From the IMG/VR virus record IMGVR_UViG_2706794683_000007: 4,136 bases of DNA; one strand, 5' to 3'. This document shows, in pieces, positions 1-4,136 of this stretch. The position numbers and the translations under genes were made by a program. The notes under the pieces are model-generated. The model did no database searches. It was not told the origin of the DNA and saw only the letters and a list, made by a program, of their open reading frames with translations. The DNA comes from a virus. Lineage: Duplodnaviria > Heunggongvirae > Uroviricota > Caudoviricetes. Numbering within the stretch: the stretch's first letter is position 1; every line of letters starts with the position of its first letter.

Positions 1-51
1 GGGGAATATCTCCCCGGCAGCCTTCAGGGAAAAATATCATCAGATGGCTGC

Positions 52-447
52 TTAAAAAAAGAACAAATGGTAGTGTCCGCTATTGCCAGTACACCTCAAT
101 TGCTCTGCGGCTTCGCTCAGAGCTGGCGTATGTTCCCGGCCTACTGATTCACACAGGTAATCAACGAAACCGGACACCAGTTTTCGTTCGCGAGGCGTGA
201 TCGCCCCACCGACCGGAGTCCAGTAATCGAAACCCAGTTGCAGGAGTTTGAAAAAACGCTTGTGGAATGCGTAGTTACACACACGCTTAAAGTCTGCGTG
301 TATCCACTCACCTATTTTGATTTGATGCAGAAAATCGCAACTCTCCGGCGTCGCCGGGAGAAGTAATCCGGAAGAGGTTTGTTTGACCAGTTGTATATGT
401 GCCATCGGCTTTCTCCGGTGGCACGGTGTTACACAGCAGGAGTTCAA
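52..447 (-). CDS. Hypothetical phage protein (117-131 aa); family not recognised
   Basis: Open minus-strand frame with TAA stop at 52-54. The ATG at 447-445 overlaps the upstream stop (ATGA, 444-447). An internal ATG at 405-403 is preceded by GGAGAAAGCCG, a plausible RBS, so the true start may be 405 (product MAHIQLVKQ...). Same orientation and tight spacing with the upstream gene. Confidence 0.6.
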   Translation of the reverse strand: MNSCCVTPCHRRKPMAHIQLVKQTSSGLLLPATPESCDFLHQIKIGEWIHADFKRVCNYAFHKRFFKLLQLGFDYWTPVGGAITPRERKLVSGFVDYLCESVGREHTPALSEAAEQLRCTGNSGHYHLFFF

Positions 448-980: not shown

Positions 981-1136
981 TTACTTCCTGGATTCGTAGT
1001 CTACGAAGACAGCGACCTCCGTCTGGCCGGTTCGGATTCGTACCTCACAGAGGTCTTTCCTCGTTACCAGTGCCGTCACTATGACGGTTAAACAGATGAC
1101 GATCAGGGCGATTAACATCGCCTTTTGCTGCTTCAT
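981..1136 (-). CDS. hok: Hok/Gef-family type I toxin (51 aa small membrane protein)
   Basis: Translation is MKQQKAMLIALIVICLTVIVTALVTRKDLCEVRIRTGQTEVAVFVDYESRK: a hydrophobic transmembrane segment followed by the conserved C-x(n)-C periplasmic tail typical of Hok/Gef/RelF. From memory it closely resembles E. coli HokD. AAGGAG lies 9 nt upstream of the ATG at 1136-1134. The ORF track extends the same frame to an ATG at 1193 (70 aa), which I read as leader sequence. Confidence 0.85.
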   Translation of the reverse strand: MKQQKAMLIALIVICLTVIVTALVTRKDLCEVRIRTGQTEVAVFVDYESRK

Positions 1137-1149
1137 AGCCTGCTTCTCC

Positions 1150-1255
1150 TTGCCTTTCGGCATGTAAGAGGCTAACCTACATGTGCAAAGCATGAAATTG
1201 GCCTCAGATTAATGTTAAGCGTCTTGCCGGACGCGTAATGTTAACTGGGGCTTTT
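1150..1255 (+). ncRNA. sok: Putative Sok-like antisense RNA region (position inferred, boundaries uncertain)
   Basis: By analogy with hok/sok loci, a short antisense RNA should be encoded opposite the hok leader. A weak plus-strand promoter candidate is TTGCCT (1150-1155), 17 nt spacer, TAACCT (1173-1178). A transcript from about 1185 would be antisense to the upstream in-frame ATG at 1193 and its SD-like GAGG. No clean terminator was found. Confidence 0.25.
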
Positions 1256-1294
1256 CTCTATCTGCCTTTTGGTGTTCATGCCTGAAGCAGATAG

Positions 1295-1342
1295 CCTCAA
1301 GCACCCGCAGTCATTCTACTTACCTCGCCAATATGAAATCAA
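1295..1342 (-). promoter_or_regulatory. hok promoter and mRNA 5' end (tac-like element)
   Basis: Minus strand reads TTGATT (plus 1342-1337), 18 nt spacer, TAGAAT (plus 1318-1313), giving a predicted start near 1306-1309. The predicted 5' end GCGGGUGCUUGAGGCU resembles the start of R1 hok mRNA as I recall it, and is complementary to the 3' element at 910-924. Confidence 0.45.
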
Positions 1343-3048: not shown

Positions 3049-3666
3049 CTACTTAACAACCCTCGAATGGCTAACATTCGGACGCCAGCTCTCCCAGTTA
3101 AAATTCACCCAGCGNNNNNNNNNNNNNNNNNNNNNNNNNNNNNNNNNNNNNNNNNNNNNNNNNNNNNNNNNNNNNNNNNNNNNNNNNNNNNNNNNNNNNN
3201 NNNNNNNGATAGCTGCCGCTAAGTGATTCTTCCCGGTACCAGGTTTTCCGCTGAACGCAAAATTTGTACACCCGGTCATCAGTTCATCGGCGATGGATTT
3301 CGCCTGGCTTAACGCGTATCGCTGGCCGTCGTTCTGCACCTGGTAATTCGCAAACGAGCATTTACGGTGCAACGGCTGGATGCCTGAGCGATTCAGAATT
3401 TTTTCCACCCGCAACTGGCGNNNNNNNNNNNNNNNNNNNNNNNNNNNNNNNNNNNNNNNNNNNNNNNNNNNNNNNNNNNNNNNNNNNNNNNNNNNNNNNN
3501 NNNATTCATTGGCGATGCTGTGTCGAATCACCTGCTCAGGTGTAAAACCCTGCTGACGGAATTTTTCCAGTTCCCGTATCGCCCCGTTAGCGCCCTGCTC
3601 CGTTCGAATCGGTTTTCGCAATGCCTGTCTGAACCGGACCCACTCATGCCAGAGTGTTTCCGGCAA
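3049..3666 (-). CDS. DnaC-like (AAA+, IstB/DnaC family) helicase loader, phage-type; interrupted by two N runs, 5' boundary unresolved
   Basis: Walker A FAFSGKPGTGKNHLAAAI is encoded at about 3208-3261. NRSGIQPLH...CSFANY and the C-terminal WVNFNW both parallel E. coli DnaC as I recall it (NRSGIRPLH, GKPGTGKNHLAAAI, WVIFNW). The ORF-track start at 3666 is a TTG, and the frame is open upstream to a stop at 3733-3735, so the 5' part may belong to the upstream replication gene. N runs at 3115-3207 and 3421-3503 are translated as X. Confidence 0.75.
   Translation of the reverse strand: MPETLWHEWVRFRQALRKPIRTEQGANGAIRELEKFRQQGFTPEQVIRHSIANEXXXXXXXXXXXXXXXXXXXXXXXXXXXXRQLRVEKILNRSGIQPLHRKCSFANYQVQNDGQRYALSQAKSIADELMTGCTNFAFSGKPGTGKNHLAAAIXXXXXXXXXXXXXXXXXXXXXXXXXXXXXXXRWVNFNWESWRPNVSHSRVVK
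3115..3207. other. Run of 93 N (unresolved or masked bases) inside the DnaC-like ORF
   Basis: Directly visible. It replaces the region where Walker B, sensor and arginine-finger motifs would be expected. Confidence 0.99.
3421..3503. other. Run of 83 N (unresolved or masked bases)
   Basis: Directly visible. It lies at the probable junction between the replication-initiator C-terminal region and the DnaC-like N-terminus. Confidence 0.99.
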
Positions 3667-3745
3667 CCAATCGGGCAGCTCAATAGCCTCCGGCTCGAAT
3701 TTTTTAGACGCTCGTTTTTGGCGAGGGGGAGATCAGTATTTAGAT

Positions 3746-3765
3746 CTTCCTCTTCCTCTTCCTCT
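3746..3765. repeat. Hexanucleotide tandem repeat (CTTCCT)x3, encoding poly-Glu on the minus strand
   Basis: Plus 3746-3765 is cttcct cttcct cttcct ct; on the minus strand this is GAG GAA x3 (EEEEEE) in the open linker frame. Confidence 0.8.
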
Positions 3766-3766
3766 G

Positions 3767-3857
3767 GTAACGCTTTTTGATCCGTTTGTGTAACGCTGGC
3801 AGCGTTACCTTTTCGTTTCAGTTCGCGTATTTTTGTTACTCGCTCGTTTGTAACCGC
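3767..3857. repeat. Iteron-like repeat cluster and 19 bp palindrome; candidate phage replication origin inside the initiator gene
   Basis: CGTTTG/CGTTTC occurs at 3783, 3814 and 3845, exactly 31 bp apart. Associated GTAAC(C)GC / GCGTTAC motifs occur at 3767, 3790, 3802, 3835 and 3850. A 9+1+9 palindrome GTAACGCTGGCAGCGTTAC spans 3790-3808. Three GATC sites fall within 3731-3782. Confidence 0.25.
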
Positions 3858-4136
3858 CCGTTTTTTTTAGAGCTTTTTCCGTTATGACGTTCAAAGTTAG
3901 GTAGAGAAAGCCCTCCGTCATTTTCGACCAGCCATCCAACCTGAATTAACGCATCAGCAAAACCAGACATAAAAGTGATGCGATCTATTGCACTTTTTGT
4001 AACGCCGCGAGCGTTACAATCTGCATTACCGTCTATCATTTGTTGATCCGCCCATGCCCAGAAGCGAATAACCTGAGGTAGCCTGAGTTTAACGGACACT
4101 CCTTCCTGAAATAGAATGGCATCAGAAGGAGCTAAT
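3836..4136 (-). CDS. Phage replication-initiation protein, N-terminal domain (possibly DUF1376/YdaU-like); 5' partial
   Basis: ORF 3836-4099 (GTG at 4099) translates to MSVKLRLPQVIRFWAWADQQMIDG...GWLVENDGGLSLPNFERHNGKSSKKNGRLQTSE. The frame stays open upstream to the window edge (4136), and the SD-like AGGAAGGA abuts the GTG with no spacing, so the true start is probably outside the window. It sits directly upstream of a DnaC-like gene, as in Rac-type replication modules. Confidence 0.55.
   Translation of the reverse strand, partial: LAPSDAILFQEGVSVKLRLPQVIRFWAWADQQMIDGNADCNARGVTKSAIDRITFMSGFADALIQVGWLVENDGGLSLPNFERHNGKSSKKNGRLQTSE

Follow-up and report, generated by a model that had tools for sequence, protein, structure and literature searches.

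Shigella genomes contain 229-348 IS copies, with IS600 among five expanded elements, and at least 5% of their coding sequences are pseudogenes, produced by an IS insertion, a nonsense mutation or an indel that shifts the frame (PMC7373316). The locus described here is a textbook instance of this decay. As in the reductive evolution associated with IS1, IS2, IS4, IS600 and IS911 (PMC7373316), a gene is inactivated by an IS together with frameshift indels, and the lesions are common to hundreds of assemblies. The window, by which we mean the whole stretch of 4,136 nucleotides that was analysed, also shares with that system the presence of IS600 at both ends and source names that point to S. sonnei. 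Nothing essential differs, the gene affected here belonging to a cryptic prophage and not to the metabolic or virulence-related genes.

The gene itself is best compared with the initiators of the lambda O/P-type replication module, as in the Rac-type ydaU-ydaV pair and in Escherichia phages vB_EcoS-673R7, -613R10 and -666R9. The gene order is shared, with a cro/cII-like gene (ydaS/ydaT) followed by the initiator and then a DnaC-like loader, and the initiator likewise has two domains with a low-complexity linker between them. Palindromic repeats within and upstream of the gene recall the lambda ori inside O, with which they may share a function. The window copy departs from this module in being broken by IS600 and by indels of +2 and -10. 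Positions 3504-4072, continuing into a block of Ns, are almost certainly a pseudogene of a lambda-O-like initiator in a Rac-type cryptic prophage of Shigella sonnei, carrying three real lesions. A degraded prophage replication gene was the first of three explanations offered by an earlier sequence-only reading of this DNA, and it is borne out by the IS600 insertion and the +2 and -10 indels in the S. sonnei loci.

Every recognisable gene of the window lies on the minus strand. From right to left these are an IS end (4074-4136), the initiator remnant, the DnaC-like gene, a DUF977 gene, a small ORF and queH, and further left a hok/sok toxin-antitoxin locus (Rfam sok match, 117 bits), a Rem-family ORF, a truncated DUF1367 gene and a second IS end (1-98). 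The principal features are as follows.

1-98, plus strand: second IS600 copy, right end, oriented like the other copy and 100% identical to the IS end in L005
52-447, minus strand: DUF1367 gene truncated by the second IS600 (117 aa, versus 199 aa in L019)
3049-3420, minus strand: ydaV, DnaC-like helicase-loader gene, broken in the window by a 93-N block at 3115-3207
3421-3503, no strand: 83-N block, with 263 nt at this place in L005 and L006, both 100% identical on either side
4072 down into the N block at 3421-3503, minus strand: initiator pseudogene, by alignment to intact loci
4071-4073, no strand: 3-bp target-site duplication, ACC on the plus strand and GGT on the gene strand, with the insertion within initiator codons 35/36
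4074-4136, plus strand: left end of IS600, with terminal inverted repeat TGAGGTAGCC... and leader, 100% identical to the full-copy IS ends in L005

The same arrangement is found in E. coli Rac-type prophages by megablast against 5,426 complete E. coli genomes, 681 of which cover at least 80% of the region. In these prophages the initiator is a single 789-nt ORF of 262 aa located 6 nt upstream of ydaV, with RefSeq names of 'hypothetical protein' or 'phage replication initiator YdaU family protein'. The three Escherichia phages also encode a 262-aa single ORF, 96% identical, which carries the annotation 'DNA replication protein O' and precedes a DnaC-like gene, and the initiator is one uninterrupted ORF in the loci L001 and L002 and in vB_EcoS-673R7. 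The S. sonnei copy has a single mismatch in 1485 nt, 12 gapped positions aside, relative to the closest intact E. coli copy (FDAARGOS_944), so the decay is recent, and the out-of-frame stretches have for this reason stayed clean.

The intact homologue at L001:2894-3682 matches phrog_2509 ('replication initiation protein') over residues 1-262 with an E-value of 1.2e-89, parts of it also match O-like and primosomal PHROGs, and the window encodes initiator residues 36-227 at 97-100% identity to L001, distributed over three frames. The window gene is a pseudogene of this lambda-O-like/YdaU-family initiator (PHROG 2509). A functional member is a single uninterrupted ORF with its own start codon, whereas the window copy has the IS600 insertion, the +2 and -10 indels and a premature TAA at 3838-3836. 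Neither the intact 262-aa protein nor the truncated initiator matches a Pfam family at E <= 0.01, and the N-terminal DUF1376 domain of E. coli K-12 YdaU is absent from the intact homologue in the Pfam search, such that this initiator and the DUF1376 YdaU-type protein differ in their N-terminal domains. Only residues 139-262 (the C-terminal 124 aa) align to the 285-aa DUF1376 YdaU-type protein of L009, with 81% identity, and because the resemblance is confined to these residues the initiator is a mosaic of a distinct N-terminal domain and a common C-terminal domain. By analogy with lambda O, the N-terminal domain is presumably origin-binding and the C-terminal domain presumably loader-binding. 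For the last 19 residues NCBIfam gave only a sub-threshold match to the DnaT C-terminus (E 0.006, 16 bits where the cut-off is 201), on which no weight is placed.

A tblastn search of the window with the intact 262-aa homologue, the frameshift-aware comparison that the sequence-only reading had proposed, yields three HSPs in minus-strand frames -2, -1 and -3 (E-values of 8e-63 and 4e-50), and the three-frame layout that had been described is real. The HSP for residues 33-105 has 97% identity and that for residues 152-227 has 98.7%; that for residues 104-162 covers the linker, which had been described correctly as protein-like, with identity to the intact protein complete up to residue 151 (...NTDLPL). 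The layout reflects homology and not chance, and the frames look protein-like because they are near-identical to a known protein.

3863-4072, minus strand, frame -2: pseudogene segment 1, codons 36-105, N-terminal domain (tblastn; alignment to L001 and L002)
3731-3866, minus strand, frame -1: pseudogene segment 2, codons 104-151, basic and acidic linker (tblastn HSP)
3504-3732, minus strand, frame -3: C-terminal domain (codons 153-227) as pseudogene segment 3, which extends into the N block (tblastn HSP)
3836-3838, minus strand: premature TAA closing the N-terminal frame 12 codons past the A8 run (ORF 3836..4099)
3861-3868, minus strand: A8 homopolymer (T8 on the plus strand), +2 relative to A6, the first frameshift (alignment to intact homologues)
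3724-3730, no strand: junction of the 10-bp deletion, the second frameshift, at the sole remaining copy of a 7-bp direct repeat TCCCCCT (AGGGGGA on the plus strand)
3700-3705, minus strand: A6 run (T6 on the plus strand), unmutated and identical in the intact L001 and L002

The N-terminal frame does stop at 3836 as had been stated, with the TAA at 3838-3836 closing the ORF 3836..4099 after the out-of-frame tail NGRLQTSE. The second frame had been given as open from 3866 to about 3700, and although its start holds, beginning right after a TAA at about 3869-3867, it extends further and is open down to 3528. Similarly, the third frame opens at 3732, past a TGA at 3735-3733, but it does not run on into the DnaC-like ORF as had been thought; it reaches the N block at 3503 and ends in that region, where its own stop codon is hidden.

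Alignment of the DNA to the two intact loci L001 and L002 reveals exactly two indels, and neither is the single-base frameshift that had been supposed. The first is a +2 change of A6 to A8, with AAAAAA in the homologues versus AAAAAAAA in the window, and the second is a loss of 10 bp, with GATCTCCCCCTAAATCCCCCTCGCC in the homologues versus GATCTCCCCCTCGCC in the window. The 10 bp lost are TCCCCCTAAA, one unit between two 7-bp direct repeats TCCCCCT, and the site in intact homologues reads TCCCCCTAAATCCCCCT. Both of the homopolymers that had been taken as switch points are present, T8 at 3861-3868 and T6 at 3700-3705, and the T8 indeed marks the first switch, but the T6 is the same in intact genes. 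The run is A6 in L001-L004 and in phage L028 and A8 in 20 of 20 S. sonnei loci (L005-L024), and the 10-bp deletion is present in all of the same S. sonnei loci fetched, with the undeleted form in L001-L004. A 10-bp loss between two 7-bp direct repeats is typical of replication slippage, and we infer that both indels arose by slippage. The three frames are each protein-like because each indel shifts the reading frame by one position (effectively -1, then -1), and as the sum of +2 and -10 is -8, which is not a multiple of three, three frames are used. The same sum and the use of three different frames rule out a pair of compensating frameshifts. We also note a second S. sonnei-labelled allele (L025-L027) with an A9 run, which is in frame and adds one Lys, and which shows that the A tract is truly length-variable; in this allele codon 35 is free of any IS, and the linker is interrupted by an IS600-type element.

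The account of a gene broken by two lesions only had overlooked a third, the cutting of the 5' end by IS600 at 4074-4136. This segment does not align with initiator homologues and has thousands of matches across E. coli genomes and plasmids. Only end pieces of IS600 (63 nt and 98 nt) fall within the window, with the ATG of transposase orfA just past the window end, and a full element is present at L005:4762-6030, about 1.26 kb long and 99.8% identical over 1269 nt to an annotated 'IS3-like element IS600 family transposase'. At this insertion in L005, the upstream part of the gene terminates in ...GGGAAGGT, followed across the junction by TGAGGTG, the downstream part begins with GGTTATTCGC immediately after ...CCTCA of the element, and GGT is duplicated at both junctions; the uninterrupted sequence at the insertion site is GGGAAGGTTATTCGC. 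Initiator codons 1-35 (MASNWIK...AALGK) lie on the far side of the complete IS600 in L005, and because of the insertion the fragment in the window is without its native start codon, with the upstream region beyond the element.

The three mutations are independent and real. IS600, inserted within codons 35/36, has cut the remainder of the gene off from its start codon, its first 35 codons and the regulatory region upstream, the A6 tract has expanded to A8 (+2), and 10 bp have been lost between the two 7-bp direct repeats. In all probability no functional protein is made from the S. sonnei copy. The lesions are lineage-fixed in Shigella, every fetched S. sonnei locus with this allele having them, and constitute ordinary genome decay; the locus matters little in itself, as a further example of prophage and gene decay in S. 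sonnei by IS insertion and slippage indels.

The N blocks are a separate matter, and they are not length-faithful, with 93 and 83 Ns standing for 318 and 263 nt respectively in L005 and L006, both of which match the window at 100% identity wherever it has no Ns. The 263 nt under the 83-N block comprise the last 35 codons of the initiator and its stop, a 6-nt spacer, and the beginning of ydaV from its ATG onward, and in translation they read ...QGLFAPKGVRPETLLRQVNTVSLPDSAIPPGFRG and a stop, then CGGACC, then ATGAAAAAT.... The apparent continuity of the initiator with the DnaC-like ORF is therefore an artefact, because the N run hides the initiator stop and the ydaV start. A single 205-aa ORF at 3049..3666, fusing the initiator C-terminus to DnaC, was rejected as a product of N blocks translated as X. 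ydaV is a gene separate from the initiator and is still intact: it encodes 248 aa in the genomes identical to the window, matches NCBIfam NF009043 over its full length with 510 bits (306 bits for the DnaC model), and is located 6 nt downstream of the initiator in L001, L002, L005 and phage L028, an order that places the initiator, as in its family, just ahead of a DnaC/P-type loader in an early-right operon. S. sonnei also has a paralogous Rac-type module, with 92-97% identity over the stretches hidden by Ns, and repeat-induced gaps are therefore a plausible origin of the N blocks, which could also be deliberate masks. For annotation, ORFs running through N blocks are untrustworthy, and the ORFs of 87 aa and 67 aa that are called in hundreds of assemblies, together with those downstream, are pieces of one pseudogene.

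The 87-aa product of ORF 3836..4099 is useful as a marker in that it requires the IS600 junction and the A8 run together, starting at a GTG within the IS600 end and closing with the out-of-frame tail. The exact product was found in 481 public-assembly blocks, of which 14 have contigs over 1 Mb, and on 492 contigs in a cluster look-up, some of 4.8 Mb; a 67-aa alternative call adds 81 more blocks and is on 73 contigs in the look-up. The source names in the clusters include 'putative bacteriophage protein [Shigella sonnei]', 'hypothetical protein FORC11_0721 [Shigella sonnei]' and UniProt A0A2Y6EAI8_SHISO. Within complete E. coli genomes, the A8 run and the deletion were scored with 131-nt queries read by identity band. 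A8 was present in none of the matches listed, the best having 97.7% identity over 131 nt and the full-length matches spanning 129 nt, and the 10-bp deletion was in none, all full-coverage matches being at or below 94.4%. Shorter megablast queries of 41-42 nt on the A8 run and the deletion junction gave no match in E. coli genomes, a result for which the short length or the low-complexity filter may be responsible by blocking seeding. A pattern scan of genome contigs tolerant of A6 to A8 recovered two A6 alleles only, in S. flexneri SFBU1023 and E. coli ECMA0423, and the run is also A6 in vB_EcoS-673R7, the phage fetched and inspected. As a side observation, the GTG inside the IS600 end that opens the 87-aa ORF may permit some translation of a chimeric fragment.

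There are three other interpretations of this locus to consider. If the homopolymer lengths were miscalled in a draft assembly, as one of the earlier proposals had it ('assembly with homopolymer errors'), the true gene would be intact, and both the presence of one lesion within a homopolymer and the two N blocks, which are 318 and 263 nt long in identical genomes, could be read in this way. The N runs, however, are poor evidence on run lengths, which independent assemblies confirm. The sources are themselves independent (NCBI, ENA, and Logan re-assemblies of raw runs), and we take agreement across assemblies as a proxy for read-level evidence. The frameshifted product is on 492 + 73 contigs from independent projects and assemblers, chromosome-size contigs included, and the A8 run, the 10-bp deletion and the IS junction occur together in 20 of 20 fetched loci (L005-L024), and the lesions are therefore not assembly errors. 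Moreover, a 10-bp deletion is not a homopolymer miscount, and the IS600 junction has a clean 3-bp target duplication. We regard the probability of an artefact as negligible. A second possibility, which had been rated less likely from the start, is that programmed -1 ribosomal frameshifting or transcriptional slippage at A8 and A6 restores a continuous functional initiator. Two successive -1 shifts would connect the three frames, the slippery heptamers A_AAA_AAC at A8 and A_AAA_AAT at the unmutated A6 are both in the incoming frame, and a stem-loop is predicted past A6 (70 nt, -30.6 kcal/mol, z = -2.55, with 4 of 200 shuffles folding at least as well). In enterobacteria, Shigella among them, RNA polymerase is known to slip on runs of about 8-9 A. 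The A-rich heptamers in incoming frames are also a point of similarity with known -1 sites (A_AAA_AAG in dnaX, A_AAA_AAG/C in IS3-family orfAB, and G/GT in phage tail genes), but the window differs from these in that the arrangement is unconserved and made by recent indels, the first site has no stimulatory structure (z = 0.01 in the 71 nt past A8), and the 5' end is gone. In phages and E. coli the homologue is one 262-aa ORF in which the run is A6 and the 10 bp are retained, and the arrangement created by the +2 and -10 indels is seen only in this S. sonnei allele; an uninterrupted ORF in phages and in about 680 E. coli genomes thus argues against programmed frameshifting. Intact genes have the same A6 run, which they read in frame, and the same fold past it, and in the S. 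sonnei copy codons 1-35 and everything upstream have been lost to IS600. A functional initiator restored by such means is very improbable.

It is also conceivable that the fragments are now separate small genes, with the 87-aa ORF (the GTG of IS600, 70 N-terminal codons and a 12-aa tail) acting against related phages as an origin-binding decoy. Hundreds of assemblies have the 87-aa or the 67-aa ORF among their called genes, the 87-aa ORF keeps most of the N-terminal domain, and two conserved palindromes that are candidate binding sites are still in the window. There is, however, no sign of a promoter, ribosome-binding site or expression for the 87-aa ORF, and it is without a Pfam match. S. sonnei is young and clonal, which accounts for the conservation of the ORF (1 mismatch in 1485 nt against an intact E. 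coli copy), and the other S. sonnei-labelled allele, which is broken differently, fits neutral decay and not selection for a fragment. We consider separate small genes, the decoy included, highly unlikely, and favor a pseudogene with three real lesions.

The initiator gene contains several further features, and the palindromes were identified by pattern search.

3745-3765, minus strand: (GAGGAA)n hexamer array encoding an acidic EEEEEE linker, strain-polymorphic in length (Tandem Repeats Finder)
3790-3808, no strand: linker copy of the 19-bp palindrome GTAACGC-N5-GCGTTAC, which may bind the initiator or be an origin site
3999-4017, no strand: second copy of the 19-bp palindrome, within the N-terminal-domain coding region

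The two matches to GTAACGC-N5-GCGTTAC in the window compare with 0 expected, and a third copy is present upstream of the start codon in the intact loci and in phage L028, with the copies about 200 bp apart. On the basis of this pattern, the three conserved palindromes are candidate origin or operator sites, and they offer a testable guess at such sites in a widespread replication module. A broader proposal, that the linker is a true slippage hotspot overlapping the phage origin and still consequential in S. sonnei, for instance through low-level transcriptional slippage at A8 or through the IS600-fused 87-aa N-terminal fragment as an origin-binding decoy against incoming phages with the same replication module, has in our view a slim chance of being correct. 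The linker as a whole brings together the A tract (as A6, A8 or A9), the (GAGGAA)n array, the 7-bp direct repeats and a conserved palindrome. Across L005-L024 the (GAGGAA)n tract is between 20 and 68 nt long (3 to 11 copies), with lengths that always differ by multiples of 6 nt, and this strain variability makes it a possible typing marker.

A second allele of the initiator gene is present in three short contigs labelled S. sonnei (L025-L027), in which the 5' end of the gene is intact and the A tract is nine residues long, a length that keeps the reading frame and adds one lysine. This allele indicates that A6, A8, and A9 are all natural lengths of the tract. It also carries a different IS600-type insertion, situated in the linker after ...CAAAAAGCG, and an IS has thus inserted into the initiator gene on more than one occasion. 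The features considered here are as follows, with window coordinates unless another locus is named.

1-98: a further IS600 end, oriented like the one at 4074-4136
981-1306, minus strand: hok/sok-type type I toxin-antitoxin locus
981..1193: HokD/HOK_GEF open reading frame, part of the hok/sok-type locus
3115-3207: N block (93 N)
3421-3503: N block (83 N)
3745-3765: (GAGGAA)n hexanucleotide array, coding for the acidic linker of the initiator
3790-3808 and 3999-4017: 19-bp palindrome copies, found also at 3695-3718 in L001 (an E. coli locus with an intact initiator) and at 1469, 1661, and 1868 in L028 (the phage vB_EcoS-673R7 locus)

The hexanucleotide array is 20 nt long in the window. Across the S. 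sonnei assemblies (L005-L024) its length runs from 20 nt up to 68 nt, corresponding to about 3 to 11 copies, and the differences among them are 6-nt steps without exception. L003 and L004, which represent S. flexneri and E. coli, have a shorter tract, and the array could find use as a VNTR for strain typing.

The palindrome, GTAACGC-N5-GCGTTAC, occurs in three copies at intervals of about 200 bp: the first is located upstream of the start codon of the initiator, the second falls within the sequence coding for the N domain, and the third belongs to the linker. None is expected by chance, and phage vB_EcoS-673R7 keeps all three. We consider these to be candidate initiator-binding or origin sites, and the location of palindromes in and near the initiator gene is reminiscent of lambda, where ori lies inside gene O. 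The last 19 residues of the intact homologue (residues 244-262; L001:2894-3682) weakly resemble the C-terminal end of the primosomal protein DnaT. This NCBIfam NF002770 match is sub-threshold (E 0.006, 16 bits versus a cut-off of 201), and might reflect a shared short interaction motif, or noise.

The same-orientation ends indicate that the window is a 3.97-kb prophage fragment between two direct IS600 copies, a layout typical of an IS-bounded short-read contig. The IS600 end at the left truncates a DUF1367 gene (52-447, minus strand), with a product of 117-131 aa versus 199 aa in L019, another S. sonnei locus. Among the Sanger-type S. sonnei draft contigs (L009 and L012-L015), some have the IS600 upstream of the initiator pseudogene adjoining a truncated ydaV from a second Rac-type module, which takes the place of the pseudogene's own 5' fragment, and in L012 and L015 the pseudogene is present twice on a single contig. 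The cause is either rearrangement mediated by the IS or an assembly wrongly joined across its copies.

Genomes with 100% identity on both flanks have 318 nt in place of the 93 N and 263 nt in place of the 83 N, and the N blocks are therefore not length-preserving. They may have been masked deliberately or may be gaps in the scaffold. Over these stretches, S. sonnei has a paralogous Rac-type ydaU/ydaV module with 92-97% identity, which could have given rise to repeat-induced gaps.

Within the hok/sok-type locus, the sok antisense RNA is matched by Rfam at 1131-1306 with 117 bits, versus a gathering score of 59.
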